Shown: positions 18,471 through 47,383, counted from the first letter of the stretch. The stretch: 64,000 nucleotides of DNA from an uncultured Candidatus Saccharibacteria bacterium (GCA_964566795.1 CAZMIU010000002.1:7965-71964); one strand, 5' to 3'. Notes: generated by a model not told the origin, from the sequence alone. Program-made: numbers and translations.

Positions 18471-18493
18471 GTGCTTTTGTAGGGTACAGGTGC

Positions 18494-19753
18494 ATGGACA
18501 TCCCATCACACTTAAGCGGACGCACGATCATTTTGGATATTGACGGTACGCTCGTGCCTGCGGGAGCTACTAAGGTATCCTCAACCATGGCGGCGCTCGT
18601 GGAGTGGCTTACCAAGCACAACGATGTGTACGTGTTTTCAAATAAAAACCTGCCACAGCGTAACCGCACGGTCGCAGAGAGCCTTGGTGTCCCCTTGCTC
18701 CAATCAAAGTTTAGAAAGCCGAGCCTGAGGGTACTGGACGGGGTGCCGCGCGAGAAGCCGCTTGTGGTGGTGGGCGACAAGGTGCTCACAGACGGGCTCT
18801 TGGCATGGCGCGCAGGTGCAGAGTTTATACATGTGGAGCGTCTCACACGCGGTGAGCCGTTCCTGGACCAGGTGCTAAACGCGATAGACGACGTGGCGGG
18901 GTATGCGTGGGCACTCCTGCGGCTCATGCGCCCCCTGCACTGGGTTAAGAACGTGCTTATTTTTGCGCCGGTGTTTTTTGCCAGAGAGGCGCTCCTCTCC
19001 GATGCGCTAGGCGCCGCGACAGCCGCGTTCTTTGCCTTTTCTTTCTTGGCGAGCGCGGGCTACATCATAAACGACCTCTCTGATATAGCGGCCGACCGCA
19101 CTCACCCTAAAAAGCGCACCCGCCCCCTTGCCTCGAAGCTTATACCAGTGCCCGCCGCACTATTGTGTTGTGCGGGTCTTGTCGCGGCGGCACTCGCGAC
19201 GCTCGCAGTGTTTGCTCCCGCAGCACTCACCATTGCGGTGGTGTATTTTGCGGTCTCACTCGTGTACAGCCTGTGGCTTAAATCGGTGCCCATTGTGGAG
19301 ATGCTTTTGTTTACGTGGTTTTACTACGCGCGCGTACTCATAGGCGGCATTGCCGCGGGTGTGACACTAACCGCGTGGCTTACGCTTGCGGTGGTGTTTT
19401 TGGCGCTGTTTTTGGTTATTGCCAAGCGGTATGTGCAGGTGCTCTCCGGTACTATCCGCGCTACGCTCGCCTACCCGGAGCCGTTTTTGCGCGGCATGCT
19501 CATCTTGAGTGGCACACTGGTTTTGGTGTTTTATGCGCTCTACACCGTGCTTGGCGCGGGCTCGAGCTTGGCGGCCTACTCGGTGGTGCCCGTCTTGGGC
19601 GGGATTATGCGCTACCTGCAGCTCGCGTTTACGGGTGCCGGAGTGGAGTATCCGGAGCGCGCCGTGTTTAGCGACCCGGGGCTTTTGCTCGCGGGTGTGG
19701 CCTGGGTTGGGGCGATACTCGTGATATTTTACGGACCCTCGGGTACGCTATAA
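18494..19753 (+). CDS. bifunctional fusion: HAD-family phosphatase domain + UbiA-family polyprenyl-phosphate 5-phosphoribosyltransferase (DPPR-synthase-like)
   Basis: N-terminal ILDIDGTL...VVVGDKVLTD (HAD motifs I and III, YqeG-like). The C-terminal domain has about 8 TM helices and INDLSDIAADRTHPKKRTRPLAS, which matches the NDxxDxxxDR...KRxRP signature of mycobacterial Rv3806c-type decaprenyl-phosphate phosphoribosyltransferase. Confidence 0.65.
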   Translation: MDIPSHLSGRTIILDIDGTLVPAGATKVSSTMAALVEWLTKHNDVYVFSNKNLPQRNRTVAESLGVPLLQSKFRKPSLRVLDGVPREKPLVVVGDKVLTDGLLAWRAGAEFIHVERLTRGEPFLDQVLNAIDDVAGYAWALLRLMRPLHWVKNVLIFAPVFFAREALLSDALGAATAAFFAFSFLASAGYIINDLSDIAADRTHPKKRTRPLASKLIPVPAALLCCAGLVAAALATLAVFAPAALTIAVVYFAVSLVYSLWLKSVPIVEMLLFTWFYYARVLIGGIAAGVTLTAWLTLAVVFLALFLVIAKRYVQVLSGTIRATLAYPEPFLRGMLILSGTLVLVFYALYTVLGAGSSLAAYSVVPVLGGIMRYLQLAFTGAGVEYPERAVFSDPGLLLAGVAWVGAILVIFYGPSGTL

Positions 19754-19760
19754 TCGCCGT

Positions 19761-20108
19761 ATGGGATACCTGCTCTTAGTACTGGCGCTCGTCTTTAACG
19801 CCTGCGCGAACGTGCTCATAAAGATTGGCTCGGTGCAGTTTGCCGGCATTGGAGACAACTTTATACGCGCCACGATAGGCAACGGGGCGTTTATGGCGGG
19901 GCTTGCACTCTTTGGACTCAATGTAGTGTTGTATGCACTGGCACTCTCGCGCATCCCGCTCTCAATCGGCTACCCCATCATGACCGTAGGTGGCCTGACA
20001 ATAATCACCATCGCGTCAGTCTTTTATCTGCACGAGTCCATCACATTTGTGCAGCTCATAGGGCTCCTCTTCCTGGCCCTGGGCATAGTGCTTGTGACCT
20101 ATAAATAA
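19761..20108 (+). CDS. small 4-TM SMR/DMT-family membrane protein (ArnE/ArnF- or GtrA-like candidate flippase for lipid-linked sugar)
   Basis: 115 aa, four hydrophobic helices. Its position immediately downstream of the UbiA-like gene mirrors the GtrA-like Rv3789 context. Confidence 0.55.
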   Translation: MGYLLLVLALVFNACANVLIKIGSVQFAGIGDNFIRATIGNGAFMAGLALFGLNVVLYALALSRIPLSIGYPIMTVGGLTIITIASVFYLHESITFVQLIGLLFLALGIVLVTYK

Positions 20109-20110
20109 GT

Positions 20111-21145
20111 ATGAAATTTTTTATAACGGGTGGGGCAGGGTTTTTGGGGATTAACCTGACGCGCTACCTGCTTGAGTGCGGGCACGAGGTTGTCTCCTAC
20201 GACCTCCTGCCTTTTGACTATCCGGAAAAAGATAAGGTGCACGCAGTAGTGGGCGATATACGAAACCTTGAGGCACTCAAGAGCGCCATGCAGGGCGCAG
20301 ATGTAGTGGTGCATACCGCAGCGGCGCTCCCGCTCTACAGCGCAGAGGATATCCGCTCGACAGATATCGAGGGCACTAAGAATGTGATGGAAGCTGCCAA
20401 AGCGCTCGGCATTACACGCGTAGTGCATGTGTCCTCCACGGCGGTGTATGGTATCCCCGACCACCACCCGCTTAAAGAAACCGACACACTAGATGGCGTA
20501 GGCGAGTATGGCAAGGCCAAGATTGCCGCAGAGGAGATTTGTGCCCGGTATCGCCAAGAGGGCATGTGTGTCTCCATTGTGCGGCCCAAGTCGTTTGTGG
20601 GGCCGGAGCGGTTGGGTGTGTTCGCATTGTTTTATGACTGGGCAGCAGACGGACACAACTTCCCCATGATTGGCTCGGGGTACAATCGCTACCAGCTTTT
20701 GGATGTAGAGGACCTGTGCGCGGCGCTCTACCTGTGCGCCACGATAGATAAAGAGCGCGCAAACGACACGTTTAATATCGGGGCCAAGGAGTTTACGACC
20801 ATGCGCGAGGATTATCAGGCGGTATTGACGCGCGCCGGGTTTGGTAAACGCATCGTGGGGCTGCCTGCCACGCCGGTTATCTGGACGCTGCGCTTTCTTG
20901 AGCTCCTCAAACTCTCGCCCTTGTACAAGTGGGTGTACGAGACTGCCTCCAAAGACAGCTTCGTCTCTATCGACAAAGCAGAGAGTAAGCTTAACTGGCA
21001 CCCGCGCTACTCCAACAAAGAGGCCTTGGTGCGCAACTATGAATGGTACCTCGCGCACCGCCACGAGTTTGTGGGACAGAGCGGTGTGTCGCACCGCGTA
21101 CCGTGGAAGCAGGGTGTTTTGTCGCTAGCTAAGCTGTTTTTCTGA
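20111..21145 (+). CDS. NAD-dependent epimerase/dehydratase (extended SDR)
   Basis: TGGAGFLGINL NAD motif and catalytic YGKAK. Confidence 0.8.
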   Translation: MKFFITGGAGFLGINLTRYLLECGHEVVSYDLLPFDYPEKDKVHAVVGDIRNLEALKSAMQGADVVVHTAAALPLYSAEDIRSTDIEGTKNVMEAAKALGITRVVHVSSTAVYGIPDHHPLKETDTLDGVGEYGKAKIAAEEICARYRQEGMCVSIVRPKSFVGPERLGVFALFYDWAADGHNFPMIGSGYNRYQLLDVEDLCAALYLCATIDKERANDTFNIGAKEFTTMREDYQAVLTRAGFGKRIVGLPATPVIWTLRFLELLKLSPLYKWVYETASKDSFVSIDKAESKLNWHPRYSNKEALVRNYEWYLAHRHEFVGQSGVSHRVPWKQGVLSLAKLFF

Positions 21146-22884
21146 TGCAGTATTTGCGCACTCATTGTCTGCTGCTCCTGGTGTGCGCCACGCTTGTGTT
21201 GGCGCTCGTGCCTCTTGTTGAGAGCCGCGTCTTACTAGGCAGTCAGTGGCAAGGCGTGGTGCCGGTGTACATGGATGAGTACATTTACTATGCCTATATC
21301 AGCGAGGCAGCGACAGGTAACTTATTTTTTGGTCACCCATATTTCTTGGAGCACCGCTTTGCCCCGCCACTGTTTTTGTCGGGCTCGGTGGCGCTTGGTG
21401 CGCTCCCTCTCTTGCTCGGGCTCCCTCTGCCCTGCGCAGTGCCGCTCGCCTTTGTGGTGTGGAGCGTAGTGTTTGTGCTCTTGTGCTACAGGCTACTGCG
21501 CGAGCTCTCGCTTGAGCCACTGTGGAGTGCTTGCGGGGCGCTCTTAGCGTACGCAGCGTGTTATGACCAGGTGTACCGCATTGGCGTGCGCCAGGAGGTG
21601 TATCCGTTCTTGCTCCTCTTCTATATCCTGCTTGTAAGGCTGGTGCACGAGCCCGGGAAACTGCGGGCCGCTTTGCTTGGCATAAGTGTGGGCGTCTCCT
21701 TTTATCTGTATGGGTTTTTGTGGCAAACAGTTGTAGTTACCCTTGCGCTCGCTTTTGCATACGCGGTCGTGTTTAGGCAGTGGGTGCTCCTGCGTGCACT
21801 GGCACTCACTGGCGTCGTTGCGGGTGCTGTGGCCACCCCGGCTCTTTTATATGCGTGGTGGGTGAGCGGGCAGCCCTACTTTTGGGAGAGCCTTAACCGC
21901 TACGGGCTGGTTGAAACCCACCTACCCGTGGCCGAAGTTATCTACTCTGGCGGGTGGGTGGGCATTGCGCTTGTGGTCTTGGGGACGCTGTACTGGCGTA
22001 TTAAAGTGCCTCGGGTGCGTACCGTCATATGTTTGATTGCCCTGATGGGTGCCGGCATATGGATAGTGCAGGGTAGCAATGTGCTCAGTGGCAAGCTCCT
22101 TGAGCAGGGTGACCATTTGCGCCGATTTATAACGCTATGGCTGCCGCTTGCCACTGCCGCATGTGCCTACATCTTTGTGCGTCACCAGGCACAGATGCCA
22201 AAGGCACTACGCGCAAGCTTTATGGCTGCGGGCGTTGTACTTGTGTGCGGGAGTTTAAACTTCGCGCTCCATCACACGCATCCGTTTACCAAACCGCTGG
22301 GCTCTGTACCACAGTGGCAGACACAGCAAACCTATGCGCCGGTATTGGAGTGGCTACAGATGCACGAGAGTGAGCCCGTGGTGGTGTGGAGTAATCCGCA
22401 CAGCTTTGCCACGGTGCATATACCGGTCTACACGCAGCACTATGTGCTCTACCTTGAGGCCGGGGAGTTGGCACTGATGTCGAGCAAAGAGATTGAGGAG
22501 CGCTACCTTGTCTCGAGCTACTTTGACCCGGTGGATGAGGTGTATCTTGAGAAAGACTTTGAGCAGTATGTGGGCCGTGCCAACGCCTATCACTTGCCGC
22601 AAACACTCGAGCGCGAGTCTTTGGTGTGCAGGTTGCTCCACTTGGGCAACAGCTCGTGTACCCCAGTACGCACACCGCAGGAACTCCTGGGTCATGAGTA
22701 CTTTGCTGCTTTGGCCGGAGAGTTTAAGGATGATATCAAACCAAACATCAAAGAGTATTTAAAGAAGTATCATGTATCGTATGTGCTAAAGGACCGCGTG
22801 CTCGACACGGCCTACCGCCCCGAGGCACTGGGCGCCACAGAAGTATATTCAGACGACCATTTCGGGTTATATAAACTGCCATGA
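21145..22884 (+). CDS. large polytopic membrane protein with C-terminal extracytoplasmic domain, GT-C-like glycosyltransferase candidate
   Basis: At least 10 predicted TM helices followed by a roughly 200-aa soluble domain. Translationally coupled (ATGA) to the upstream SDR. No specific motif was assigned by eye. Confidence 0.45.
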   Translation: MQYLRTHCLLLLVCATLVLALVPLVESRVLLGSQWQGVVPVYMDEYIYYAYISEAATGNLFFGHPYFLEHRFAPPLFLSGSVALGALPLLLGLPLPCAVPLAFVVWSVVFVLLCYRLLRELSLEPLWSACGALLAYAACYDQVYRIGVRQEVYPFLLLFYILLVRLVHEPGKLRAALLGISVGVSFYLYGFLWQTVVVTLALAFAYAVVFRQWVLLRALALTGVVAGAVATPALLYAWWVSGQPYFWESLNRYGLVETHLPVAEVIYSGGWVGIALVVLGTLYWRIKVPRVRTVICLIALMGAGIWIVQGSNVLSGKLLEQGDHLRRFITLWLPLATAACAYIFVRHQAQMPKALRASFMAAGVVLVCGSLNFALHHTHPFTKPLGSVPQWQTQQTYAPVLEWLQMHESEPVVVWSNPHSFATVHIPVYTQHYVLYLEAGELALMSSKEIEERYLVSSYFDPVDEVYLEKDFEQYVGRANAYHLPQTLERESLVCRLLHLGNSSCTPVRTPQELLGHEYFAALAGEFKDDIKPNIKEYLKKYHVSYVLKDRVLDTAYRPEALGATEVYSDDHFGLYKLP

Positions 22885-23933
22885 AGATGTATTTTGTAGC
22901 CAATGCCCGTATGCCTAGTGAGAAGGCGTATGGGATACATATCGCCCGGATGTGCGAGGCCTTTATAGAAGCCGGCCACGAGGTAAGGCTCGTGGTCCCT
23001 GCGCGTGCCCCGGGCTCTATGCGCGAGGCGTATGGGCTGCGTGTTGATGTGCCTATGGTCCGCCTACACTCGGTCTCGTTTGAGAAGTATGAAAGATTCG
23101 GCTTCTTTGTGATGGGTGTCTCGTTTGCGCTTGTGAGCTTGTGGTACCTGTGGCGCAAGAAAGTGGGCGGGGAGACGTTTGTTATCTACACGGTCGACAT
23201 GGACACCTTTAGCCACACGCTCCTGCCGCTTGTGGCCCCAGTGGTTGCAGAGTTCCACTCACCTAAAAAATCCACACTGCTTTCGCGCTTCTTCTTTAAA
23301 CGCGTGCAGATAGTTACCACAAACCCCCTCATTAAAGAGGAGCTGTCAAAGACATTTGCGCTTAAAGATATTCCTGTAGAGCCCAACGGCGTAGACGAGA
23401 GCTTTTTTGACCTGCCAGAGACTTCGGGCCGGAGCGCAATGTACCTAGGCCGGTTTTATAAGTGGAAGGGGCTCGAGGTACTGCCCAAAGCCGCCAAACT
23501 TATCCCTGATGTAGAGATGCGCGTGGTGGGCGGGAGCAAAGAGGAGTTTGAGAAGGTGTTTGGTGATGCGAGCGGTCTCCACTTTAGCGAGGTGCCGTAC
23601 GCACGCGTTAAAGATGAGTTGGCTCACGCCGATGTATTGCTCTTGACCGGCACTGCCCTAAACGAAGACTCCAACCGCTACACCGCACCCATGAAGGTGT
23701 TTGAGTACTTGGCGACAGGAAAGCCCATGGTGGTGAGCCGCACCGAGGCACTCAAGAGTCTTATACCCGAGAATTTGGCGCACTACTGCGAGCCGGATAA
23801 CCCGAAGGCATTGGCCAAGGCGATTGGGGAGGCTTTGAGCGACACGGGCGGCCGCGAGGCGCGCATTGCCTACGCGCGCGGGCACACATGGCGTGCCAGA
23901 GCAGAGCGTATTTCAAAACTCTTTACGAGCTAG
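22881..23933 (+). CDS. glycosyltransferase family 4
   Basis: [24 protein letters not shown]-terminal GT4 motif. 350 aa. Confidence 0.75.
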
Positions 23934-25803
23934 ATTTTGCTGTAAGGAGGTCGTCGACCACGTGTGGGTCTGCAAGGGTCGAGGTGTCGCCCAAGTTGGT
24001 GTCGCCTGACGCAATCTTTCGCAGTATTCGGCGCATGATTTTGCCGGAGCGTGTTTTGGGGAGTGCGGGTGCAAACTGTATGACGTCTGGCCGGGCTATG
24101 GGGCTTAGGTGCGAGGCGACGTACGCCTTGAGCTCTTGCATAAGTGTCTCGCCCACATCAACGCCAACTTTGGGAGTGACATAGGCGTAAATACCCTGAC
24201 CCTTAATGTCGTGCGGGTAGGAAACCACTGCGGCCTCGGCCACAGCCTCGTGCTCCACAAGCACGCTCTCTATCTCAGCACTGCCGAGGCGGTGCCCGGC
24301 GGTATTAATCACGTCGTCCACACGGCCTGTAATCCAGTAGTAGCCGTCCTCATCGCGCCTGACACCGTCACCGCTAAAGTACGCACCGGGGAAGGTGGAG
24401 AAGTATGTTTGTATAAAGCGCTCGTGGTCTTTGTAGAGCGTGCGCATCTGCCCGGGCCACGAGCCAGTGAATGCGAGCATGCCCTCTGCCGGGCCCTCGA
24501 GCTTTACTCCATCCTCGGAAAATATAGCGGCTTGTATGCCAAACAGCGGCAGTGTAGCGGAGCCTGGCTTTGTTTTAATAGCGTGCGGTATGGGCGAGAT
24601 TAGTATGCTGCCTGTCTCTGTCTGCCACCATGTATCTACCACCTCGCAGCGATTGTGCCCAACCTCCTCGTTGTACCAGCGCCACGCCTCCGGGTTTATC
24701 GGCTCGCCCACGCTGCCTAAAATGCGCAATGACTCGCGCGTGGTGCTCCGGAGCGGCTCCTCGCCCTCGCGCATAAGTGCGCGTATGGCGGTGGGTGCGG
24801 TGTAGAGGATGGTTACCTTGTGCTTGTCGACGACCTCCCACATGCGCGCGCTGGTGGGGTACTGCGGTGTGCCCTCAAACATGAGCGTGGTGGCACCATT
24901 ACACAGCGGGCCGTAGACAATGTAGCTGTGGCCGGTAACCCAGCCCACATCGGCGGTGCACCAGTAGATGTCGTTTGGCTTCAAATCAAACACGTACTCG
25001 TGCGAGAGTGACGCATGCACCAAGTAGCCGCCGGTGGTATGCAGCACGCCTTTGGGTTTGCCGGTAGAGCCGGAGGTGTAGAGGATAAACAGCGGGTCCT
25101 CCGCACCCATCTCCTCGGGTGCGCACTCGCTTGATACCGTTTGTGCCTCGTCGTTGTACCAGTAGTCGCGGCCGCCCTGCATCTGAGTCTCAGTATCGGT
25201 GCGCTTAACTACAAGCACGTGCTCGACACCCGGGCACTGCGTAAGTGCCTGGTCGACATTGCGCTTAAGCGGCACCACTTTGCCGCCGCGCAGGCCCTCG
25301 TTGGAGGTTATGACAACTTTACTCTCGGAGTCCTGGATGCGGCCGGCAAGCGCATCTGGAGAGAAGCCGCCAAAAACAACCGTGTGCACGGCGCCCACAC
25401 GCGCGCACGCGAGCATAGCAAACGCGGCCTCCGGGATCATGGGCAAGTAGATGGTGACGCGGTCGCCTTTTGTAACCCCGTGTTTTTTTAGCACGTTGGC
25501 AAAGCGGCCTACCTCCTCTTTAAGTTCTTGGTAGGTGATGGTGCGGGTCTCGCCGTTGTCGCCCTCCCAGATAATCGCCACCTTATTGCCCTCTGTATTA
25601 GCGTGCCTGTCTACACAGTTGTAGGAGGCGTTGAGCGTGCCGTCCTCAAACCAGCGTATGTGCACGTTGCCCGGCTCAAACGATACGTCTTTGACTTTGG
25701 TAAAGGGTTTAATCCACTCCACGCGCGCAGCCTCCGCCCGCCAGAACTCGTCCGGATTGGTGTTGGCGGCCCTGTGTTTCTGGTCGTACTCCTCGCGCGT
25801 CAT
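23923..25803 (-). CDS. acs: acetyl-CoA synthetase (AMP-forming)
   Basis: 626 aa. Full-length Acs similarity including [15 protein letters not shown]-binding motif and the WWQTETG and SGKIMRR motifs. Confidence 0.9.
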
Positions 25804-25875
25804 TGAGCGTATCCTATCACAGTGACCCTCAATTTTATCGACACAGAGGTGTCTTTTTAGTACTATTGGGCCGCT

Positions 25876-27861
25876 ATGAAAGCGGCCATATTAGAGACTA
25901 TTGACCAGCCCCTGGTTGTGGCCGAGGTCGGGTTAACCGAGCTCCAGTTTGGCCAGGTACTTATAAAGGTGCTCGTCTCGGGCATCTGCGGCTCGCAGCT
26001 TATGGAGATTGGCGGCCACAAGGGCAACGCCAAGTTTGTCCCGCATCTTATGGGCCACGAAGGCTGCGGCATTGTCGAGGAGGTGGGGCTCGGAGTCACC
26101 CGTGTTAAAAAGGGCGACAAAGTTATCATGCACTGGCGCAAGGGCGACGGTGTTGAGAGCGACTTCCCCGAGTACATTTACAACGGCAAGCGCATTAAGA
26201 GCGGCAAGGTCACCACCTTTAGCGAGTACTCTATCGTGTCAGAAAACCGTGTCACGCCCGTGCCGCATGACACACCCGAGGAGTTGTGTGCACTCTTGGG
26301 CTGCAGCCTCTCCACAGCGCTTGGCACTATTAATGACGAGGCAGAGGTAAAGTTTGGCGAGAGTGTGATGATTGTTGGCGCCGGCGGCTTGGGCATTAAC
26401 CTTATTAAGGCGGCCAAACTTGCCTCGGCGTACCCGGTCATCTCCCTAGACATACACGAGCACAAGCGCGCACTCGCGCTCTCGTTGGGTGCAGACCTTT
26501 TTATAAACGTGGCGACAGAGTCTCTGCAAGAGAAGCTGGCCGAGATCGGCCTTAAAGACGTAGATGTGATCATTGAGTGCTCGGGCTCTAAAAAGGCCAT
26601 AGAGGCCACACTCCCGTACCTCTCAGGCACCGGGCGCTACATAATGGTGGGCCACCCCAAACCCGGCGAGAGTGTTGAGATGCTCCACGCGGGGCACATG
26701 TTTGGCGGCGAGGGCAAGACTATCAAGGCCACGCAGGGTGGCGGCTTTAACCCCAGCAGGCATATCGCGCGCTATGTGCGTTTGGCGCGCGAGGGCAACC
26801 TCAATATCGACGGCATCATCACGCACCACACCACGCTCGACAATATCAACAAAGCGATTGATCAGGTTCGCGCCGGAGAGGCGAGCCGCATCCTCATTAA
26901 GATGCAGCACGACAAAGACCTCTGGCCCGCCTACCGCCGCATGATGAAGTTGCGCGTTGCGAGCGAGGAGCTGGTTAAGCACTATCTGGAGAAGAAGGTG
27001 TTTAGCATGGTGCACTTCTATGTTGGGCAGGAGGCCGTGGCTACTGGTGTGTGCGACGCACTCACGGACGGCGACCAGGTGATGAGCTCGCACAGGCCGC
27101 ACGGGCACTATCTGGCGCGCGGGGGCAGCTTCCGCTCCCTCGCGGCGGAGTTGTTTGGCCGCGCCGCTGGCACGGCACACGGCAAAGGTGGCTCGATGCA
27201 TCAGGTGGCGCGCGAGGCCGGCTTTGCGGGCTCCTCGCCGCTCTTGGGCAGTGCCGTGCCGCTTGCAGCGGGTTTGGCGTTTGCACAAAAATATCAAAAC
27301 AAAGACGGCGTCTCAGTGGTGTTTTATGGTGATGGCGCCTCGGAGGAGGGCGTGGTGTACGAGACCTACAACCTCGCCGCACTCTACAAACTTCCCATGC
27401 TCTTTGTGCTCGAGAACAACAGCTGGTCTATCAACTCGCCGCTTACAAACCGCCGCGCAGAGAACTATGATAGTAAAAAAGTGGCAGAGGGCTTGGGGCT
27501 CAGATACATAGAGGCCAACGGCAACGACTATGAAGATGTGGCGGCCAAAGCAAACAAGCTCATTAAAGATATCCGCGCCGGTGCGGGGCCGGCACTCCTG
27601 GAGTGCAAGGTGTATCGCCACATGGCACACTCGACGCCGCTTATGGATGAGAAGAACCGCCTTTTGGACACGCTCGAGGAGCGCCTTAAAGAGGACCCAC
27701 TCAAGAAATTGCGCACCAAACTTGTGGCCGCAGGTGTAAGTGAGGCAGAGCTTACACACGAGGAGGAGGCTATGCGCGAGGCGGCACGCGCAGACATTGT
27801 ATGGGCTACCGAGCAGCCGTATCCGCCCAAAGAGGATCTAACCAAAGATGTCTATGCGTGA
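25876..27861 (+). CDS. fusion protein: Zn-dependent medium-chain alcohol dehydrogenase domain + TPP-dependent 2-oxoacid/acetoin dehydrogenase E1 alpha subunit
   Basis: N-terminal [13 protein letters not shown]...GHEGCG...IVGAGGLG (MDR/Zn-ADH, butanediol/threonine-dehydrogenase-like). C-terminal [11 protein letters not shown]...[36 protein letters not shown] (E1-alpha TPP-binding). Confidence 0.8.
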
Positions 27862-28885
27862 TCCGATTAAATACAGCGAGGCAATAGCAGAGGCAACCAG
27901 GCAGCTCCTCGAGAGCGACCCGCGCGTGTTTGTGCTGGGGCTTGGTGTACCGCAGGGTACGGGCGCTGTGGGCTCGCTCGCGGGCGCATTCCCAACCCGC
28001 ATTATAGACACGCCGACAAGCGAGGCTGCACTTACCGGCATGGCAGTGGGTGCGTCTATCGCAGGGCTAAGGCCCATAGTATTTCATGACCGGGTGGAGT
28101 TTAGTTTGCTCGCATCGGATCAGATGTTTACGCAGGCCGCCAAGTGGCGCTACATGTTTGCTGGCGAGGGCGGCTCGGCACCCATTACATTGCGCATCAT
28201 GATAGGCCGGCAGTGGGGCAATGGGCCGCAGCACTCGCAGGCTCTCTATGGCATGTTTGGCTCGGTTACCGGTTTGCGCGTTGTTATCCCATCGTCTCCT
28301 TATATGATGAAGGGCCTATTGGCTGCTGCGGTAAAGGCAGATGACCCGGTGGTGGTGCTCGAACCCCGCTGGCTCTACAACATAAAGGAGGATGTGCCCG
28401 AGGAGTTGTACGAGCTGCCCTTAGATAAAGCGCGTGTGGTTAAAGAGGGTAGCGCGGTAACGGTTGTGGCCTATGGTGACGCTCTTTTGGCAGCGCGCGA
28501 GGCCCTGGCGCTTATGGGCGAGCACGCCGCTGGTGTAGAGCTTATTGATTTGGTGTCACTTAAACCTATTGACCACGCGACTATACACGCCTCTATAAAA
28601 AAGACAGGCAAGCTTATAACCGTGGACACCACCTCGGCTGCGTTTAGTATCGGCTCGGAGATTATTGGTATGGCGGCACAACATCGGGTTGGGTTTACGC
28701 ACGCACCACGCGCGGTGGCAGCACCCGATGTGCCGGTGCCTACAACACCCGCCTTGGCAGAGTATTGGTACCCGACCAAGGTAGATGTTGCCAACGCGAT
28801 ACTCGAGATGCTCGGGGCCCCAAAAATAGAGAAAGAGCTCACGTTTGAGGAGCTCCACATGGCCCCCACCATAACCCTGGAGTAA
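27848..28885 (+). CDS. TPP-dependent dehydrogenase E1 beta subunit (transketolase-like pyrimidine-binding and C-terminal domains)
   Basis: 345 aa. RVFVLGLGV...TPTSEAALTGMAVGASIAGLRPIV...VVLEPRWLY motifs typical of PDH/acetoin-DH E1-beta. Overlaps the alpha-fusion gene by 14 nt. Confidence 0.85.
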   Translation: MSMRDPIKYSEAIAEATRQLLESDPRVFVLGLGVPQGTGAVGSLAGAFPTRIIDTPTSEAALTGMAVGASIAGLRPIVFHDRVEFSLLASDQMFTQAAKWRYMFAGEGGSAPITLRIMIGRQWGNGPQHSQALYGMFGSVTGLRVVIPSSPYMMKGLLAAAVKADDPVVVLEPRWLYNIKEDVPEELYELPLDKARVVKEGSAVTVVAYGDALLAAREALALMGEHAAGVELIDLVSLKPIDHATIHASIKKTGKLITVDTTSAAFSIGSEIIGMAAQHRVGFTHAPRAVAAPDVPVPTTPALAEYWYPTKVDVANAILEMLGAPKIEKELTFEELHMAPTITLE

Positions 28886-28966: not shown

Positions 28967-29758
28967 ATGGCTCTCACTATCATGTCGCTTAATGTTGGCC
29001 GGCTTTTGCAGGACCGCACAACTGCATATCTTGAGGCTCTCAATGACGAGAGAGATGCGCCTGACGTGATGTGCATCCAGGATCTGCCCTTTGATGGGTT
29101 GCCGCTTTTGGAGCGCTGGCCGCATGTGACCTTCGCTCCGATGACCAATCACTACATCAACGGTGAGCGTGCTGTGGTGGGTATCGCGATCGCGTCGCGG
29201 TACTTTATGACCGGCATCAAGCACTACACCACGTGGGGTGATGGCTTACTTAAGGATCTCCGTGGGATTAACGAGCATAATCAGCGACATCTCGGCGCTG
29301 AGAGCGACAAGCTCGTCGAGATGACCGAGGACAGAGTGCTTATCTGCGCCCGCGTCACCAAGGACAGAGAGTACGATATCGCCACGACTCACGGCATGTG
29401 GGTTCGCGATGGTGTCGTAAATGACGTGCAACGCAGCTCGACCGCCAAACTTGTGGGTTACTTACGGCACGAAGGGTACGCCCGCAACGGTCTTGTGTTT
29501 GCCGCGGACATGAATATGTCGCACGGCGGCGAGATCTACAACATGCTCACCGGCGTCATGAAAGACTGCATGCCGGCGGACATCGAGACCACGCTCGACC
29601 CTGACCATCCGTACTCCAAGCGCGGTGGCAAGGTTGTGACCGACTGCATCATGACTCACCCGGCGCCGCGCTCTGACCCGTATCGCGTAAGCGATGTGGG
29701 CCTGGTCGCCGGTGTCAGTGACCACCAAGCCCTTATTGCCACTGTCAGCAAGGACTGA
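28967..29758 (+). CDS. endonuclease/exonuclease/phosphatase (EEP) family protein
   Basis: N-terminal SLNVGRL and C-terminal SDHQAL catalytic His motif. Strong AGGAGG Shine-Dalgarno upstream, unlike most neighbours. Followed by an intrinsic terminator. Confidence 0.6.
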   Translation: MALTIMSLNVGRLLQDRTTAYLEALNDERDAPDVMCIQDLPFDGLPLLERWPHVTFAPMTNHYINGERAVVGIAIASRYFMTGIKHYTTWGDGLLKDLRGINEHNQRHLGAESDKLVEMTEDRVLICARVTKDREYDIATTHGMWVRDGVVNDVQRSSTAKLVGYLRHEGYARNGLVFAADMNMSHGGEIYNMLTGVMKDCMPADIETTLDPDHPYSKRGGKVVTDCIMTHPAPRSDPYRVSDVGLVAGVSDHQALIATVSKD

Positions 29759-29768
29759 ACACCTTAAC

Positions 29769-29800
29769 CTCTCCGGCACACGCCGGGGAGTTTTCTTTTT
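29769..29800 (+). terminator. rho-independent terminator (9-bp GC stem ctccggc-acac-gccgggag followed by ttttcttttt)
   Basis: Hairpin plus T-run immediately after the EEP gene stop. Confidence 0.6.
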
Positions 29801-29827: not shown

Positions 29828-30832
29828 ATGCAGGAGCGCACAATACACAAAGCGGTTACGTTTCGCGCTTCATCAATTGGAGACGCTTTGATGGCTCTCT
29901 ACCTTTTTCAAAATATTAGGAAGGCTAATCCGGAGGCTAAGTGTGCGCTGGTGGTTGCGGGGCGCGGCGCGATGGTTAAAAACCTTTTGCTCGCATACCC
30001 GTGGCTTGAGGTGATTGAGGCCAATCGTAAACGCCCCAAAGCAGTCCTACATTTGCTCAATTCGTATTGGCTCGCAGACATAGTCACTACGCCCTACACT
30101 GCGGGCACGGTGGGGCTGTTTACCAAACTCATGGCGCGCTTTATCGGGCGCAGCCCAGGAGTGATTGGGTTTATCGACAAGTCATCCTGGTCAAAATATT
30201 TTTACGACCATTTAGTGCCCATCTGGGGCCGCGGTACTGCGCCCCGCTTGGCAGAGCAAGCCGCGCTTAAGGCCGCAGGTGTGCCAGTGGGCCAGGAATA
30301 TTTTGAGTATGAGTTTGTGCCGCAGCCGCAGGTGTTTGAGAGGTTGGGGGTAAAGGCGGGGGAGTATATAGTGGTGCACCTCTTTGCCGGCTCACAAACC
30401 CGTGGGTTAGACTCAGAGCACCAACAACAGTTGATTGATGCACTTGTACAAGAGTTCTCAGGCATACAACTCGTCTTTACCGGAACCGACCACGACCACG
30501 GGTTTATAAAAAAGTTAACGCTGCCGGAGCGCACGGTACTTGCCTCCACATCCGTGCAAGAGATGGCGCAGCTGCTTAAGTCGGCCAAAGGAGTGGTCTC
30601 GGTGGGCACGGGCCCGTCGCACATGGCCTCTATCATGCGGGTGCCCACGGTGGTGATCTGCGTGTGCCATGGTGTGCCTTGGTGTGATGAAACGCAGTAT
30701 GGCAACGCACCCGTCAAAGTATTTGCCCGCCCAGACCTGTGCCCGCAGGGCCACAACGCAGAAGGATACGCGCGCTGCATGAACGGGCTTGATATGCACG
30801 AAGTGGCCCGCACTGCAAAGTTCCTTTTTTAG
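29828..30832 (+). CDS. glycosyltransferase family 9 (heptosyltransferase-like)
   Basis: N-terminal FRASSIGDALMALYLFQNIRKANPEAK resembles the RfaC/RfaF/RfaQ ADP-heptose:LPS heptosyltransferase signature. GT-B architecture. 334 aa. Confidence 0.65.
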   Translation: MQERTIHKAVTFRASSIGDALMALYLFQNIRKANPEAKCALVVAGRGAMVKNLLLAYPWLEVIEANRKRPKAVLHLLNSYWLADIVTTPYTAGTVGLFTKLMARFIGRSPGVIGFIDKSSWSKYFYDHLVPIWGRGTAPRLAEQAALKAAGVPVGQEYFEYEFVPQPQVFERLGVKAGEYIVVHLFAGSQTRGLDSEHQQQLIDALVQEFSGIQLVFTGTDHDHGFIKKLTLPERTVLASTSVQEMAQLLKSAKGVVSVGTGPSHMASIMRVPTVVICVCHGVPWCDETQYGNAPVKVFARPDLCPQGHNAEGYARCMNGLDMHEVARTAKFLF

Positions 30833-30894: not shown

Positions 30895-32223
30895 ATGGCT
30901 AAAAACTCCAAGAACAAGGTTGCATACGTGGGCATGAGCGCCGACCTCGTGCACCCCGGACATCTCAACATTATTAAAGAGGCGGCAAAGCTCGGTGAGG
31001 TCGTGGTGGGCGTACTTACAGACGAGGCCATCGCGTCATACAAGCGCCTGCCGTACATGAGCTACGAGCAGCGCAAGGCGATCGTCGAGAACATTAAAGG
31101 TGTTTCGCGCGTCATCCCGCAAAAGACGCTCGACTACCGCCCCAACCTAAAGAGCCTCAAACCCGACTTTGTCGTACACGGCGACGACTGGAAGTATGGC
31201 GTACAGCAGGAGACGCGCCAACAGGTAATAGACACACTCGCCAAGTGGGGTGGCAAGCTTGTGGAGCCCGCTTACACCAAAAATATTTCCTCCACAGCGC
31301 TCCATAGCGCGCTTAAAGAGGTGGGTACCACGCCAGACCTGCGTCTTAAGCGCCTGCGCCGTTTGCTTGGCGCGAAGTCGCTGGTGCGCGGCATCGAGGT
31401 GCACAACGGCATCACCGGCCTCATTGTCGAGCACGTGTCTGTTAATCGCGAGAATAAAAAAGAGGAGTTTGATTTTATGTGGCTCTCGAGCCTCACCGAC
31501 TCCACCGCGCGCGGCAAGCCGGACACCGAGCTTGTAGACTCTACCACCCGCCTCACGACAATCCACGACGTGCTCGAGGTAAGTACCAAACCATTGGTAT
31601 ATGACGGCGACACCGGCGGGCAGACAGAGCACTTTCCGTATATGGTGCGCACTCTGGAGCGCCTTGGTGTCTCTGCAGTCATTATTGAGGACAAGCAGGG
31701 CCTCAAGAAAAACTCTCTCTTTGGCACTGCGGTAAAGCAGGAGATGGCCGACCCTAAAGCTTTTGCCGAGAAAATTAAGGCGGGCAAAAAAGCGCAGGTC
31801 ACCTCAGACTTTATGATCATTGCGCGTCTTGAGAGCATGATTGCGGGCAAGGGAGTTAAGGACGCACTCAAGCGCGCGCAGATGTATATAGACGCGGGTG
31901 CAGACGGCATCATGGTCCACAGCAAGGAGAAGGACCCCAAGGAGGTCTTGGAGTTCTGCCGCGAGTTTAAGAAGTTTAAAAAGAAGGTACCCCTGGTTGC
32001 CGTGCCCTCTACCTACCACACCATAACCGAGGAGGAGCTTGTTAAGGCCGGCGTCTCTATAGTCATTTACGCCAACCATCTCCTGCGCAGTGCCTATCCG
32101 GCTATGCTCAAGACTGCCGAGACTATCCTCAACCACGGCCGCGCCACCGAGGCACAGGAGCTGTGCATGCCAATCTCCGAGATTCTCACGCTCATAGACC
32201 GCAAAGGCAATGGTGCATCCTAA
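30895..32223 (+). CDS. ppm: bifunctional cytidylyltransferase (HxGH nucleotidyltransferase) + phosphoenolpyruvate mutase, Fom1-like
   Basis: N-terminal [19 protein letters not shown] (HxGH motif, CCT/TagD-like cytidylyltransferase). C-terminal [11 protein letters not shown] and the isocitrate-lyase/PEP-mutase fold (PEP mutase EDK motif). This architecture matches fosfomycin Fom1 (CyTase-PEP mutase). Confidence 0.8.
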
Positions 32224-33310
32224 AGCATTTATAGACTCGCTTAGTGCCGCGGGCGTCGACTACTTTGTGGGCGTGCCAGACTCGCTGCTTAAGGACGTAC
32301 TCTCCTACATTGATGAGGTGGTGCCGTGCGAGCGTCATATTATTGCGGCTAACGAGGGCAACGCGATAGGTATTGCCACAGGCTATAACCTTGCCACAGG
32401 TAAGGTGCCGTGCGTGTACCTGCAAAACTCAGGGCTGGGCAATGCAGTTAACCCGCTCGCCTCGCTCGCAGACCAAGAGGTGTACTCAATCCCGATGCTG
32501 CTTGTGATTGGCTGGCGCGGCGAGCCCGATACGCACGATGAGCCCCAGCACAAAAAGCAGGGTCGCATCACGCCGGCGCTCCTTGATACGCTCGAGATCC
32601 CGTACACCACCGACCTTGCCAAGGTGGGGGAGATGGTCGAGTTTGCGGTTAAGGATAGTTCGCCCGTGGCACTGTTGGTACAGGCCGGCAGCTTTGAGGC
32701 GTACAAGGGCAAGGTGCCGACCTCGCTCCTTAGTTGTACGCGCGAGGCCGCAATAGAGGAGATTGTCGCGGCTATAGAGCCCAGTGCCATTGTGGTGAGC
32801 ACCACCGGCAAGATATCGCGCGAGCTCTACGAGGTGCGCGGGCGCCGCGGCGAGAGTATGCGCGACTTTTTGACCGTGGGCTCGATGGGCCACGCCAACC
32901 AGATTGCGCTTGGCATTGCCACGCAAAAGCCAGACAGGCCGGTGTACTGCATAGACGGCGACGGCGCCACGCTCATGCACCTGGGCGGGCTCGCCACCGT
33001 AGGCTGGGTCGCACCCAAAAACTACAAGCACATTGTGCTTAACAACTTGGCGCACGAGTCGGTGGGCGGGCAACCCTCTGCCGCGGGTGTAGCCAACATC
33101 CCTGCTGCAGCCCAAGCACTTGGTTATGTGTCGGCCACAAGTGTCGACACCAAAGAGGCTATCGCGCCTGCCGTAAAGGCGATGGGCGAGGGCCCCGCAT
33201 TTTTGGAAATTAAGGTGAACCTGGAGTCGCGCAAAGATCTTGTGCGCCCCAAAGAGACACCGCTTGAGAATAAGCAGGCATTTAAGGAGTATCTCGATGG
33301 CACAAACTAG
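32210..33310 (+). CDS. ppd: phosphonopyruvate decarboxylase (TPP-dependent)
   Basis: 366 aa. Split TPP-enzyme layout with [19 protein letters not shown]-binding motif. Lies immediately downstream of the PEP mutase, as in all C-P biosynthetic clusters. Confidence 0.8.
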
Positions 33311-34286
33311 CTACATAGGAGAGGGTACATTGCACAAGATTACCGACATCGTGCGCGAGCTTGGTGTGCACAAAGTACTGCTTGTCGCGGGTGCGCACTC
33401 CTACGCGGCCTCCGGTGCTAAGGCATATCTTGATGAGGCGCTTAAGGATGTAGAGGTGAGGATGTACAGCGACTTCCATGCTGTCTTGGAGGACGAGGAT
33501 GTACAAAAGGGCATCGCGGTGCAAAACGAGTTCAAGCCCGACATTGTAGTGGCCGTTGGTGGCGGGCATGTGATGGACGCAGGCAAGGCTATTAACTACT
33601 ACGCAACGCGTGTGCCGGTTGTGGCGGTGCCCACTACCGCAGGCTCGGGGGCAGAGGCCACACCGTTTGCCGTCATTTATAAAAACGGCATTAAGACCTC
33701 GCTTGAGGGCCCTGAGGTGTTGCCCGCCTATGCTACTGTTGACCCTGCTTTAAACAATGCGCCGCGTGGTGTGATGCTCTCGGCTGGGCTTGATGCCTTG
33801 TGCCAGGCGATAGAGTCTTGTTGGGCGCGCGGCGGCAGTGATGAGTCACGCGAGTATGCCACGCAGGCGCTCAAGCTTGGTTGGCCCGCTTTAGAGAAGG
33901 CGCTCATTGGAGACAAAGACGCACGCGCCGACATGAGCATCGCTGCGCATCTGGCGGGCAAGGCTATAGCGATCTCTAAAACCACCGCATGCCACGCACT
34001 GTCCTACGGGCTTACCTACAAGTTTGGCGTGCCGCATGGTTTGGCGGTGGCACTTACAATGCCCGCTGTGATGCGCCACAATGCTGTAGCCTTGCCGCAG
34101 GGCATTACGCCCGAGGCGTTTGAGGATCTACTAAAACGCACAGAGGCACCAACCCTTAAGAGTTTTGGTGTAACACCCGAGGCTGTCGATGTGCTTGCAG
34201 GAGAGGTAGACCCGGAGCGCCTGAGCAACAACCCCAAGCCCCTGACGAAAGAGGATATTATTGCTATATATACGAGTGTTATCTAA
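33297..34286 (+). CDS. iron-containing alcohol dehydrogenase, candidate phosphonoacetaldehyde reductase (FomC/PhpC-like) producing 2-hydroxyethylphosphonate
   Basis: VAVGGGHVMDAGKA and downstream His motifs of the Fe-ADH family. Genomic context lies after ppm and ppd. Confidence 0.7.
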   Translation: MAQTSYIGEGTLHKITDIVRELGVHKVLLVAGAHSYAASGAKAYLDEALKDVEVRMYSDFHAVLEDEDVQKGIAVQNEFKPDIVVAVGGGHVMDAGKAINYYATRVPVVAVPTTAGSGAEATPFAVIYKNGIKTSLEGPEVLPAYATVDPALNNAPRGVMLSAGLDALCQAIESCWARGGSDESREYATQALKLGWPALEKALIGDKDARADMSIAAHLAGKAIAISKTTACHALSYGLTYKFGVPHGLAVALTMPAVMRHNAVALPQGITPEAFEDLLKRTEAPTLKSFGVTPEAVDVLAGEVDPERLSNNPKPLTKEDIIAIYTSVI

Positions 34287-34290
34287 CTGT

Positions 34291-35109
34291 ATGGAATCTA
34301 TTAAGGACCTGCGCGAGCGCCTCCAAAAAAACCAGCTGGGCCACCCCATATTGCAACGCGTGCTGTCTATCTATATAACGCGCGCCATCTTGGCTACTAG
34401 TATTACTGCCAACCAGGTAACGGCTGTGATGCTCCTGGTCGGTCTGGCGAGCGCCATCCCGCTCTTTATGGGCTATATCTGGACCGGCCTCGCGCTCTCG
34501 TACTTGTGCATCTTGCTCGACGCCTCTGACGGAGAGGTGGCACGCTACCGCAAGTCCTACTCGCTCAAGGGCATTTACCTAGACCTGATCAACCATCTGG
34601 CGATACAGGCATGGTTTTTCCTGGGGCTGGGCTACGCTATCGCGCAGTATCAGAGTGGGTACATGTACACCGTAGTACTTGTGGCCGCTATGGTGGGTGC
34701 GCTCTCGTTCCCGCTCAGGCGCGCCAACGGCGACCTGCACCGCGAGATATATGTGCACCACTACACCTCGCACCCCGAGCGCTTTACCTTGCCGCATATC
34801 CCACACAAAGAAGAGGGCAAGGAGGAGGCTAAACCGCGTCTGGGTCTTGTGGGGTTAATCAAAAAAGCAATCTACTACAGCGAGTACCATGCGATTATGC
34901 TTGTCATACTTGTACTGGCACTCCTTCTGGAGATGGCGCTCAACCTTGTAACGCACCCGATTGTGGCATGGCTCATTATTATCTACGCTGCCGTGTCCTG
35001 CCTCTACCTTATTAAAGAAATAGTCCAGGGCTATAAAGACATGGAGCGCCGCGTTGCAGACACTGATGCAAGGCTAAAGGCTACCTACCTCCATGGACCG
35101 CAAGGATAA
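34291..35109 (+). CDS. CDP-alcohol phosphatidyltransferase-family membrane enzyme
   Basis: DASDGEVARYRKSYSLKGIYLDLINH corresponds to DG-x2-AR-x8-G-x3-D-x3-(D to H). Multiple TM helices. Confidence 0.6.
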   Translation: MESIKDLRERLQKNQLGHPILQRVLSIYITRAILATSITANQVTAVMLLVGLASAIPLFMGYIWTGLALSYLCILLDASDGEVARYRKSYSLKGIYLDLINHLAIQAWFFLGLGYAIAQYQSGYMYTVVLVAAMVGALSFPLRRANGDLHREIYVHHYTSHPERFTLPHIPHKEEGKEEAKPRLGLVGLIKKAIYYSEYHAIMLVILVLALLLEMALNLVTHPIVAWLIIIYAAVSCLYLIKEIVQGYKDMERRVADTDARLKATYLHGPQG

Positions 35110-41210: not shown

Positions 41211-41301
41211 TTCTCCCCAATTCATCCACAGAGTTATCCCATTGTTTTTTTTGTGCGATAAGCGGGACAATAGGTGTCTTATTAGTCATTTCATAAAAAC
41301 T

Positions 41302-42366: not shown

Positions 42367-42385
42367 GTAGCTCTTGTAAGCTAGA

Positions 42386-42420
42386 AGAAAAGAGCCTCGA
42401 AGGAGGCTCTTTTCTGTAAG
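42386..42420 (+). terminator. rho-independent terminator (13-bp stem agaaaagagcctc-gaag-gaggctcttttct)
   Basis: Near-perfect hairpin followed by T-rich tract directly after the 42366 stop. Confidence 0.6.
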
Positions 42421-42456
42421 TTTTAAAACATATGTTTAAGTGCTACAGTATTTCCG

Positions 42457-43281: not shown

Positions 43282-43285
43282 TTGT

Positions 43286-45521: not shown

Positions 45522-45528
45522 TGCCGGT

Positions 45529-46215: not shown

Positions 46216-46256
46216 CAGAGAAGTTTTGTGTGGTAGTTTAGTGCCAGCAAGATTCT

Positions 46257-47312: not shown

Positions 47313-47322
47313 CCGAGTACTG

Positions 47323-47357
47323 CACCCTCCCCACTATCGGGGAGGGTGTTTCTTTTT
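47323..47357 (+). terminator. rho-independent terminator (caccctcccc-actatc-ggggagggtg followed by tttctttttg)
   Basis: 10-bp GC-rich stem plus T-run after the transporter gene. Confidence 0.65.
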
Positions 47358-47383
47358 GTACACTCGCGTGGTTATATGGACGC

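Follow-up and report, generated by a model that had tools for sequence, protein, structure and literature searches.

An alcohol dehydrogenase fused to a thiamine-dependent E1-alpha subunit in a surface-glycan locus of the Candidate Phyla Radiation: a candidate two-carbon-transfer enzyme for sugars

Thiamine-dependent enzymes that branch keto-sugars at carbon have been grouped into three classes, namely YerE-like enzymes acting in lipopolysaccharide (LPS) synthesis, alphaKADH2 enzymes and split transketolases, the last two being found mainly in pathways of specialised natural products while viruses are unexplored (PMC12247030). The alphaKADH2 enzymes are two-subunit E1-type enzymes that operate without E2 in the pathways of aldgamycin, kosinostatin, avilamycin, paulomycin and trioxacarcin, and the use of pyruvate was demonstrated in vitro for KbDH-alpha/beta (PMC12247030). 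In the paulomycin pathway the acetyl branch is turned into a hydroxyethyl group by a separate reductase, Pau7 (PMC4753412), and in those of miharamycin and amipurimycin a split-gene transketolase acts after an oxidoreductase that forms the keto group (PMC12247030). In the phages P-SSM2, S-SM2 and S-SSM7, co-occurring "LPS genes" of unexplained function were considered to be possibly stuffer DNA (PMC3037559). Here we describe a gene located in a 64,000-nucleotide stretch of an uncultured Candidatus Saccharibacteria bacterium (GCA_964566795.1 CAZMIU010000002.1:7965-71964, hereafter the window) that joins a zinc-dependent alcohol dehydrogenase (ADH) in frame to a thiamine-dependent E1-alpha subunit and is followed by a gene for E1-beta, and we compare this module with the systems above.

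The fusion gene (25876-27861, + strand) encodes 661 amino acids and overlaps by 14 nt the E1-beta gene (27848-28885, + strand, 345 amino acids), which is translationally coupled to it through this overlap. Pfam profiles placed ADH_N at residues 26-130, ADH_zinc_N at residues 171-290 and E1_dh at residues 354-649 (3.8e-60) of the fusion, and detected Transket_pyr and Transketolase_C in the E1-beta protein. From these matches and from alignments, we delimited an ADH domain of residues 1-343 (25876-26904, +), a junction of only five residues, QHDKD (26905-26919, +), located by comparison with the unfused genes of loci L004, L007 and L010, and an E1-alpha domain of the pyrophosphate-binding (PP) type (26920-27861, +, Pfam E1_dh); E1-beta (27848-28885, +) comprises the pyrimidine-binding (Pyr) domain and the C-terminal domain according to Pfam and to matches in the PDB. 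Here and below, L001 to L205 are labels of related loci, in which genes were called with a plain greedy algorithm and named by BLAST, and P0192 and P0257 are labels of individual proteins. The original prediction, made from the sequence of the window, had proposed a 661-residue in-frame fusion of a zinc-ADH with E1-alpha, followed by E1-beta after a 14-nt overlap, and both the coordinates and the Pfam domains agree with it.

In unfused relatives, the stop codon of the ADH gene and the start codon of the E1-alpha gene lie 1-7 nt apart or overlap as ATGA, and no stop is present in the fusion of the window. A 78.5-kb NCBI contig carries the identical 661-residue open reading frame (ORF), as does the Logan assembly of run SRR14271372, made independently; the cluster of this ORF at 90% identity has 10 members originating from NCBI, ENA, JGI and Logan, and we retrieved 18 full-length cluster representatives of the fusion (644-669 amino acids, 58-91% identity), carried by metagenome-assembled genomes (MAGs) of Candidatus Paceibacterota and by MAGs labelled Saccharibacteria. 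An assembly or frameshift artefact, the possibility against which the original prediction had asked for a check, is thereby ruled out, the fusion being one ORF and not two in an assembly made at the level of reads. None of the public copies bears a name, none of the 150 best matches among 1.84 billion representatives at 50% identity spans both halves, and our literature search found no paper describing an ADH-E1-alpha fusion or a cassette of this ADH with a thiamine enzyme; to that extent, the earlier suspicion that the architecture had not been described holds. The fusion is thus rare, although genuine and recurrent in the Candidate Phyla Radiation (CPR). Neighbour-joining analysis of the ADH parts unites the CPR sequences in a single clade where fused proteins alternate with unfused ones, so that fusion or fission must have occurred several times; together with the 1-7 nt spacing or overlap of the unfused genes, this indicates that ADH and E1-alpha work as a unit. 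An AlphaFold model of the fusion (pLDDT 75.9) consists of two compact domains connected by a short low-confidence junction (residues 345-347), the catalytic lobe at the N-terminus of the ADH being of poor quality.

In the ADH half, the ligands of the catalytic zinc (C38, H61, E62 and C143) are invariant in alignments A1 and A2, and the GAGGLG motif at residues 168-173 (GxGxxG) and D192 are invariant in alignment A1. The spacing of D192 after the GxGxxG motif presumably makes it the equivalent of Asp223 of horse-liver ADH, which selects NAD rather than NADP, and indicates a predicted preference for NAD that would fit an oxidising or redox-neutral role. There is no cysteine between residues 66 and 137, hence the four-cysteine lobe that binds structural zinc is lacking, and the best matches in NCBIfam and the PDB, which are class-III-like ADHs, cover the protein in two stretches that flank the missing lobe. 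Scores against the NCBIfam equivalogs for class III ADH, threonine dehydrogenase and butanediol dehydrogenase were 136-176 bits, compared with cut-offs of 440-544. A complete butanediol/threonine-dehydrogenase-like zinc-ADH had originally been predicted: its catalytic zinc ligands and Rossmann motif are indeed there, but the structural-zinc lobe is missing and the equivalog cut-offs are not reached. Judged by these sequence features, the ADH half is best placed in a distinct subfamily of NAD-type zinc-dependent medium-chain dehydrogenases/reductases (MDR).

The E1-alpha half has the thiamine diphosphate (ThDP) motif G485-D-G...E513-N-N, invariant in alignment A1, and a YRHMAHS loop that is the counterpart of the YRYHGHS loop in the E1-alpha of pyruvate dehydrogenase (PDH), and its pocket motif reads ENN-S-W-S-I-N-S where PDH has ENN-R-Y-G-M-G-T. 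Its best match in the PDB is human PDH E1-alpha (6.5e-49), and E1-beta likewise matches E1-beta subunits (about 1e-46 to 1e-51). The cofactor-activating glutamate (DTPTSE) and the histidine of GPQHSQ in E1-beta are kept across 24 family members. Both subunits score below the curated PDH models, E1-alpha with 282.8 bits for a cut-off of 393.85 (TIGR03182, PDH_E1_alph_y) and E1-beta with 221 bits for a cut-off of 321 (NF006667, NCBIfam). Given the intact E1 residues and these sub-cut-off scores, the pair looks like a competent ThDP-dependent decarboxylase or carboligase of the E1 fold and not like an ordinary PDH. When practically all large ORFs in the window were scanned with Pfam, no lipoyl-E2 or E3 component (Biotin_lipoyl, 2-oxoacid_dh, Pyr_redox) was revealed, as had been noticed in the original prediction, and none was seen in about 15 related loci with Pfam-annotated genes.

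Within the CPR, the module occurs as separate ADH, E1-alpha and E1-beta genes in groundwater contigs and as the fusion in others, with a GT9-like transferase, a pair made of a GT4 transferase and a membrane protein, and an endonuclease/exonuclease/phosphatase family (EEP)-like protein as conserved partners. Every relative examined places it amid glycan genes (glycosyltransferases of families GT9, GT4 and GT2, FkbM methyltransferases, PMT_2, Wzm/Wzt). Outside the CPR, the thiamine enzyme accompanying orthologous ADHs (43-62% identity) is of another kind: a MAG of Syntrophobacteraceae has a split transketolase, and Prochlorococcus single-cell genomes as well as numerous contigs from metagenomes have a compact single-chain E1. 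The compact E1 (about 380-405 amino acids; 68 loci, for example L013 2630-3829, L037 3033-4250 and L200 10080-11225) combines a shortened E1-alpha PP domain with an E1-beta Pyr domain and has no Transketolase_C. The split transketolases of these cassettes have a transketolase-like N-half and a truncated C-half of 160-179 amino acids, and their Pyr halves score equally with 1-deoxyxylulose-5-phosphate synthase (DXS) and split transketolase. Among 101 loci chosen by ADH similarity alone and flanked on both sides by at least 3 kb of sequence, the ADH has a thiamine enzyme no more than 5 genes away in 99 (68 compact E1, 16 split transketolase, 15 E1-alpha/beta). A PfkB-type kinase lies nearby in 84 of these 99 loci, and genes resembling 4,6-dehydratases or epimerases of the short-chain dehydrogenase/reductase (SDR) family in 50. 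The types of thiamine partner are interleaved in the ADH tree, therefore the partner has been replaced repeatedly around a constant ADH.

The usual gene order is SDR, ADH, thiamine enzyme, kinase, HldD-like SDR, small nucleotidyltransferase (NTase), cupin and small haloacid dehalogenase (HAD) phosphatase. In phages as in the CPR, the accessory enzymes best match models of the heptose pathway and remain below the equivalog cut-offs, and heptose-type companions (HldE-like kinase, NTase, GmhB, HldD) were found beside the module in 11 of the 15 loci of the E1-alpha/beta type and in 84 of the 99 loci overall. With an approximate probe sequence, GmhA-like (SIS) proteins turned up in no more than 6 of about 200 loci, which indicates their rarity without proving their absence. 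A scan of IMG/VR yielded 272 relatives, and hundreds of viral contigs carry the cassette, about 80 IMG/VR loci (L119-L198) being among those examined. The cultured T4-like cyanophages S-SM2 (L199, NC_015279 147784-154116) and P-TIM68 (L200, NC_028955 166044-171530) carry the cassette under generic annotations, and in phages it sits amid GT9-, GT10- and GT11-like transferases and FkbM methyltransferases. In P-SSM2 and S-CAM3 the activation core of five genes occurs and both the ADH and the thiamine enzyme are lacking, so the pair behaves as an add-on to this core. Searches of the literature for the cassette in cyanophages, in Campylobacter and in O-antigens returned no functional study. On contigs of Prochlorococcus sp. 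AG-402-G19 (L013) and AG-409-B13 (L015), which are either host islands or co-sorted phage DNA, the cassette lies beside GmhB-, HldE- and HldD-like genes. We also observed a recurrent neighbour of the ADH, here called P0046N-like, of about 230-300 amino acids with an N-terminal HxGLGD motif (alignment A3), which is encoded in L010 (14453-15157), L003 (9246-9917), L004 (9062-9958), L037 (1430-2020), L042 (1530-2858) and about 40 further loci, and forms fusions with the ADH (L037) and with a GmhB-like phosphatase (L042); neither single sequences nor a 22-sequence profile of this family gave a Pfam or PDB match.

An exhaustive search of the 1.84 billion representatives surfaced two further fusions. 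P0192 (L204 114-2090) contains Transket_pyr, Transketolase_C and a zinc-ADH, the same partnership in reverse order. P0257 (L203 8001-9962) joins an NAD-dependent sugar epimerase/dehydratase to E1-alpha (E1_dh), in a cluster comprising a GHMP sugar kinase, the fusion, E1-beta, a DegT aminotransferase, a B12-radical-SAM protein and a GT2 transferase. E1-type enzymes have thus been joined repeatedly to sugar oxidoreductases.

Our preferred reading, which we hold to be probable though well short of settled, is that the fusion and E1-beta form an E2-independent enzyme transferring a two-carbon unit onto a sugar of the surface glycan, with the ADH performing the adjacent redox step. We favour it because the thiamine partners that alternate beside the ADH belong to the two classes known or proposed to add two carbons to sugars, because of the glycan context, and because E2 and E3 are missing. 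The E1 part would take a small 2-oxo acid, pyruvate being the likeliest, and decarboxylate it to an enzyme-bound activated two-carbon unit, which would then be joined to the carbonyl carbon of a sugar intermediate to form an acetyl (acyloin-type) branch or extension. The NAD-dependent ADH would either oxidise a sugar hydroxyl to the carbonyl acceptor or reduce the ketone of the new acetyl group to a 1-hydroxyethyl group. The former is favoured by the NAD-type site, by P0257 and by analogy with the oxidoreductase of the miharamycin pathway; the latter is the alternative, by analogy with Pau7 and YerF. The near-zero linker suggests that a reactive carbonyl intermediate could be handed over within one complex. 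Judging from the relatives, the sugar would probably be of the heptose type, activated by phosphate or nucleotide, and then installed by the GT9-family transferase. The analysis establishes the architecture and its recurrence, the intact catalytic residues, the glycan setting, the obligate pairing of this ADH with a thiamine enzyme and the lack of E2 and E3 nearby; the donor (pyruvate or hydroxypyruvate), the acceptor, the order of the steps and the product are what we infer.

The closest likeness, in composition and context, is to the alphaKADH2 systems (AviB1/AviB2 of avilamycin, Pau11/Pau12 of paulomycin, AlmDI/DII of aldgamycin, KbDH of kibdelomycin), which also consist of E1-alpha and E1-beta without E2 or E3 within a cluster of sugar and glycosyltransferase genes, and in which a pyruvate-derived two-carbon unit is put on a sugar carbonyl and the branch's keto group is often reduced separately (by Pau7, an aldo-keto reductase). 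Those systems belong to antibiotic clusters of actinomycetes, whereas the present enzyme is found in CPR surface-glycan loci with relatives in phages, its redox partner is a zinc-MDR ADH fused in frame to E1-alpha, and its neighbours are GT9 and, in relatives, heptose-type activation enzymes instead of TDP-hexose deoxysugar genes. The pairing of an oxidoreductase that makes a carbonyl with a thiamine enzyme that adds two carbons recalls the miharamycin and amipurimycin route, and 16 of the 101 loci do pair the ADH with a split transketolase; that route, however, is from Streptomyces, involves hydroxyacetyl transfer and is proposed but unproven in vitro, and the transketolases of the cassettes have a truncated C-half. 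YerE and YerF, like other YerE-like enzymes of LPS O-antigens, offer a further parallel, as in the synthesis of yersiniose A, where a pyruvate-derived acetyl branch is proposed to be placed on a nucleotide keto-sugar of a surface glycan and then reduced to hydroxyethyl. YerE is a single-chain member of the decarboxylase (acetolactate-synthase-like) superfamily with TPP_enzyme_N/M/C domains, unlike the E1_dh protein with its separate beta subunit found here, and is therefore a functional analogue and not a member of the family. The original prediction had offered two-carbon tailoring with a coupled ADH step as one of two readings, citing yersiniose: its outline is supported by context, co-occurrence, independent fusions and the literature, while alphaKADH2 is the better precedent. 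By sequence and fold, the nearest relatives are PDH E1 and AcoA/AcoB, all of whose cofactor-binding and catalytic residues are present; the module departs from these in its sub-cut-off scores, the absence of E2 and E3 from the window, its glycan context, its altered pocket motif and the fused ADH. The resemblance to the ADP-heptose pathway comes from the enzymes flanking most relatives (kinase/NTase similar to HldE domains I and II, GmhB/HAD, HldD-like SDR, GT9), which nonetheless fall below equivalog cut-offs, with GmhA almost always missing and only the GT9-like gene and an NTase-PEP (phosphoenolpyruvate) mutase fusion represented in the window.

Several observations weigh against two-carbon tailoring. 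The absence of E2 and E3 is established for the 64-kb window, and the whole genome may differ. By eye, the split-transketolase variants retain the canonical transketolase histidines and two phosphate-binding basic residues, which would fit a sugar-phosphate (aldehyde) acceptor better than a nucleotide keto-sugar. Phage cassettes often add a FabG-like SDR, which makes the exact step of the ADH ambiguous. Finally, the kinase, SDR, HAD and cupin that go with the module in most relatives are absent from the window, where the only domain resembling the cassette NTase is fused to PEP mutase; because the companion kinase, small NTase, HAD and SDR are lacking, the substrate cannot be read from the locus itself.

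The main rival, unlikely though deserving of consideration, is that the module builds the sugar skeleton, its thiamine enzyme acting like a transketolase or DXS on an aldehyde, either an aldose phosphate or a sugar whose primary alcohol has been oxidised by the ADH, to yield a ketose phosphate or else a sugar lengthened by two carbons; after redox steps by ADH and SDR, this product would become the substrate of the HldE-like kinase, phosphatase and nucleotidyltransferase. Such a role would agree with the association of the module with heptose-type activation enzymes in both phages and CPR, with the rarity of GmhA, the first enzyme of the canonical route, in the approximate search described above, with the transketolase histidines and apparent phosphate-binding residues of the split variants, with the putative phosphoesterase at the end of the unit in the window, and with the habit of class-III-like zinc-ADHs, which typically interconvert primary alcohols and aldehydes. 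The activation core of P-SSM2 and S-CAM3 nevertheless occurs without the pair, which is then an add-on and not an entry step; an E1 using pyruvate would yield a 1-deoxy-ketose, which is not isomerisable to an aldose; no E1-alpha/beta enzyme sets a precedent for this role, while a direct one exists for sugar C-branching; and the SDR-E1-alpha fusion of P0257 points to nucleotide keto-sugars. We consider it highly improbable that the module tailors a phosphonate, for instance through carboligation onto phosphonoacetaldehyde and a subsequent reduction that would produce a new phosphonate head group. Phosphonate genes do lie on the same strand within 2-9 kb and are syntenic in L036, phosphonoacetaldehyde is an aldehyde acceptor, and phosphonothrixin biosynthesis uses a thiamine-dependent ketol transfer; yet PEP mutase is absent from L001, L003, L004, L007-L011 and roughly 160 metagenome and viral loci, a terminator-like hairpin and the GT9 gene stand between the two gene sets, and the phosphonate set is self-sufficient for 2-hydroxyethylphosphonate.

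Readings in central metabolism fare poorly. CPR bacteria are fermenters, and the E1 pair, lacking an E2, might serve as a pyruvate decarboxylase releasing acetaldehyde, which the fused ADH would reduce to ethanol with regeneration of NAD+, the adjacent acetyl-CoA synthetase (Acs) handling acetate. Channelling of toxic acetaldehyde would be a sensible purpose for a fusion, the ADH is of the NAD type, Acs is a divergent neighbour in the window, L036 and L205, and the release or ligation of acetaldehyde is a known side reaction of E1 enzymes (PMC12247030). We give this scheme very little credence, as the module is always located within glycan clusters, including the cyanophage "LPS" clusters, and beside a sugar kinase in >80% of loci, the Acs adjacency is not kept beyond close relatives, E1 can be replaced by a split transketolase, which makes no acetaldehyde from pyruvate, and the ADH subfamily is far from ethanol dehydrogenases and without the structural-zinc lobe. 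Hardly credible at all is a conventional complex, in which the pair would be the E1 of PDH or of an acetoin/2,3-butanediol system working with E2 and E3 encoded elsewhere in the genome, even though sequence comparison points first to models and structures of PDH E1-alpha/beta, the histidine and glutamate residues used in lipoyl transfer are retained, and the C-terminal domain of the beta subunit, which binds E2 in known E1s, is present. The scores lie under the curated PDH cut-offs, E2 and E3 are absent from the window and from about 15 Pfam-annotated related loci, the context is one of glycan synthesis, the partners found in orthologous cassettes cannot dock E2, and to our knowledge CPR genomes generally lack such complexes. 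The other reading of the original prediction, a butanediol/acetoin cleavage unit with Acs recycling acetate, is not supported: the glycan context is found throughout, the Acs adjacency is local, PDH scores are below cut-off, and the compact E1 and split transketolases of orthologous cassettes do not work with E2.

For the two-carbon-transfer reading, the chemistry has precedent, whereas no earlier description appears to exist of the fusion, of the dedicated zinc-ADH, of the exchange between thiamine partners, of the heptose-type setting or of the presence in CPR bacteria and abundant phages. Sugar branching by E2-independent E1 enzymes and split transketolases has so far been seen as a speciality of actinomycete antibiotics (PMC12247030), and our observations indicate that the same chemistry may be common in CPR surface-glycan loci and phage genomes, tied to one conserved zinc-ADH. 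More speculatively, and with considerable doubt on our part, the ADH/thiamine pair could define an unrecognised nucleotide-sugar pathway of CPR, other bacteria and abundant aquatic phages that converts a heptose-type precursor into a C2-branched or extended (nine-carbon) sugar, the CPR fusion being a self-contained enzyme that oxidises, ligates and reduces while recycling its own NAD(H). If true, this would give the long-unexplained cyanophage "LPS genes", the functionality of which was itself open in 2010 (PMC3037559), a defined product, and it provides a testable hypothesis for that product. It would also be a lead to an unusual surface sugar in the CPR, organisms with nearly uncharacterised envelopes. 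The ADH-E1 fusion, the compact E1 of about 400 amino acids and the truncated split transketolases are candidate biocatalysts for forming C-C bonds on sugars, and the compact single-chain E1, a minimal thiamine-enzyme architecture, may be of particular interest to biocatalysis.

In the window, promoters and terminators were called as consensus-scan matches only. A promoter-like sequence (TCGACA-17-TACTAT, 25838-25866, +) ends 10 nt before the ATG of the fusion, within the 72 bp that separate the divergent fusion and Acs genes. Downstream of E1-beta, an ORF of 263 amino acids (28967-29758, +) encodes an EEP-like protein, 34% identical to a PF03372 protein located just downstream of the module in L004-L006 and also present in L040 and L044; the copy of the window itself gave no Pfam match and no PDB relative and was identified only through its L004 homologue. 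It is followed by the best terminator-like candidate of the scan, a hairpin with a 9-bp stem, 7 GC pairs and a T-rich tail (29769-29800, +). The promoter-like site and this hairpin suggest a three-gene unit made of the fusion, E1-beta and the EEP-like ORF, the latter being probably its last gene and perhaps the phosphoesterase of the pathway, as its family would allow.

Beyond the hairpin, a GT9-like (heptosyltransferase-family) glycosyltransferase gene (29828-30832, +) was identified by Pfam (Glyco_transf_9, 1.8e-7) and by the NCBIfam heptosyltransferase I model (1e-9, below cut-off). Of the neighbours conserved beside the module in the CPR, it is the commonest (7 of the 15 E1-alpha/beta-type loci), with homologues adjoining the module in L001, L003, L010, L011, L036, L040 and L044. 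Upstream, a 579-residue polytopic membrane protein without any family match and a GT4 glycosyltransferase (together 21145-23933, +; tblastn, Pfam) are 44-46% identical to an adjacent pair in L003, and the GT4 gene was also found by tblastn in L001 and L010. Between this pair and the fusion lies Acs (23923-25803, - strand), a bona fide acetate-CoA ligase (996 bits for a cut-off of 725). Acs had been described in the original prediction as the convergent neighbour of the fusion; it does adjoin it, but in divergent orientation with start codons 73 bp apart, and is convergent with the upstream GT4 gene. The adjacency is kept only in relatives that are 86-91% identical (L036, L205) and is absent from L001, L004 and L007-L011, while L003 offers no more than a weak Acs-like gene at a distance of 8 kb; a functional tie between the fusion and Acs was rejected, the adjacency not being conserved. 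Acs and the phosphonate genes are retained together only in the closest relative, L036.

The phosphonate branch (30895-37486), which is complete and had gone unmentioned in the original prediction, starts 2 kb downstream of E1-beta on the same strand and is syntenic in L036. It encodes a fusion of an NTase (CTP_transf_like) with PEP mutase (388 bits for an NCBIfam cut-off of 320), a phosphonopyruvate decarboxylase (440 bits for a cut-off of 313), an iron-dependent ADH (PsrA-like), a CDP-alcohol-phosphatidyltransferase-like protein and a 797-residue protein with TagF-like and GNAT parts. As no 2-aminoethylphosphonate transaminase was seen in this branch, the iron-dependent ADH possibly yields 2-hydroxyethylphosphonate, which would then be the predicted product. 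An obligate tie between these genes and the fusion was rejected, the linkage being real only in close relatives. A phosphonate-decorated glycan in Paceibacterota would be of note by itself.

The window is chromosomal (MurA, MurB, SecA), and between about 9.6 and 59 kb it consists of one large glycan locus of the CPR (Paceibacterota-like) with many GT4 and GT2 genes, SDR dehydratases/epimerases, an ABC exporter and a Wzy_C/TPR protein. SDR genes resembling 4,6-dehydratases or epimerases (20111-21145 and 11057-11908) could supply keto-sugars, to judge from their family. In the region 18437-21145, a protein of the UbiA family that carries a HAD domain at its N-terminus and best matches decaprenyl-phosphate phosphoribosyltransferase (177 bits for a cut-off of 207) is followed by an HpnA-like SDR and then by the 579-residue membrane protein, a stretch reminiscent of the mycobacterial lipid-linked arabinose route. 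Further downstream (37483-51801) lies a nonulosonic-acid set with NeuB+SAF, CTP_transf_3 (CMP-transferase), a PseB-like dehydratase, GFO_IDH and two DegT proteins, in which HisH/HisF-like amidotransferase genes are flanked by genes for paralogous proteins of 370 and 401 amino acids with no Pfam match; this composition suggests an acetamidino-modified nonulosonic acid as product. Just upstream of the glycan locus we found a gene for a secreted protein with Lamin-tail and PKD domains (9633-11057) and a gene for a TrwB/TraG-like type-IV coupling protein (6921-8777).

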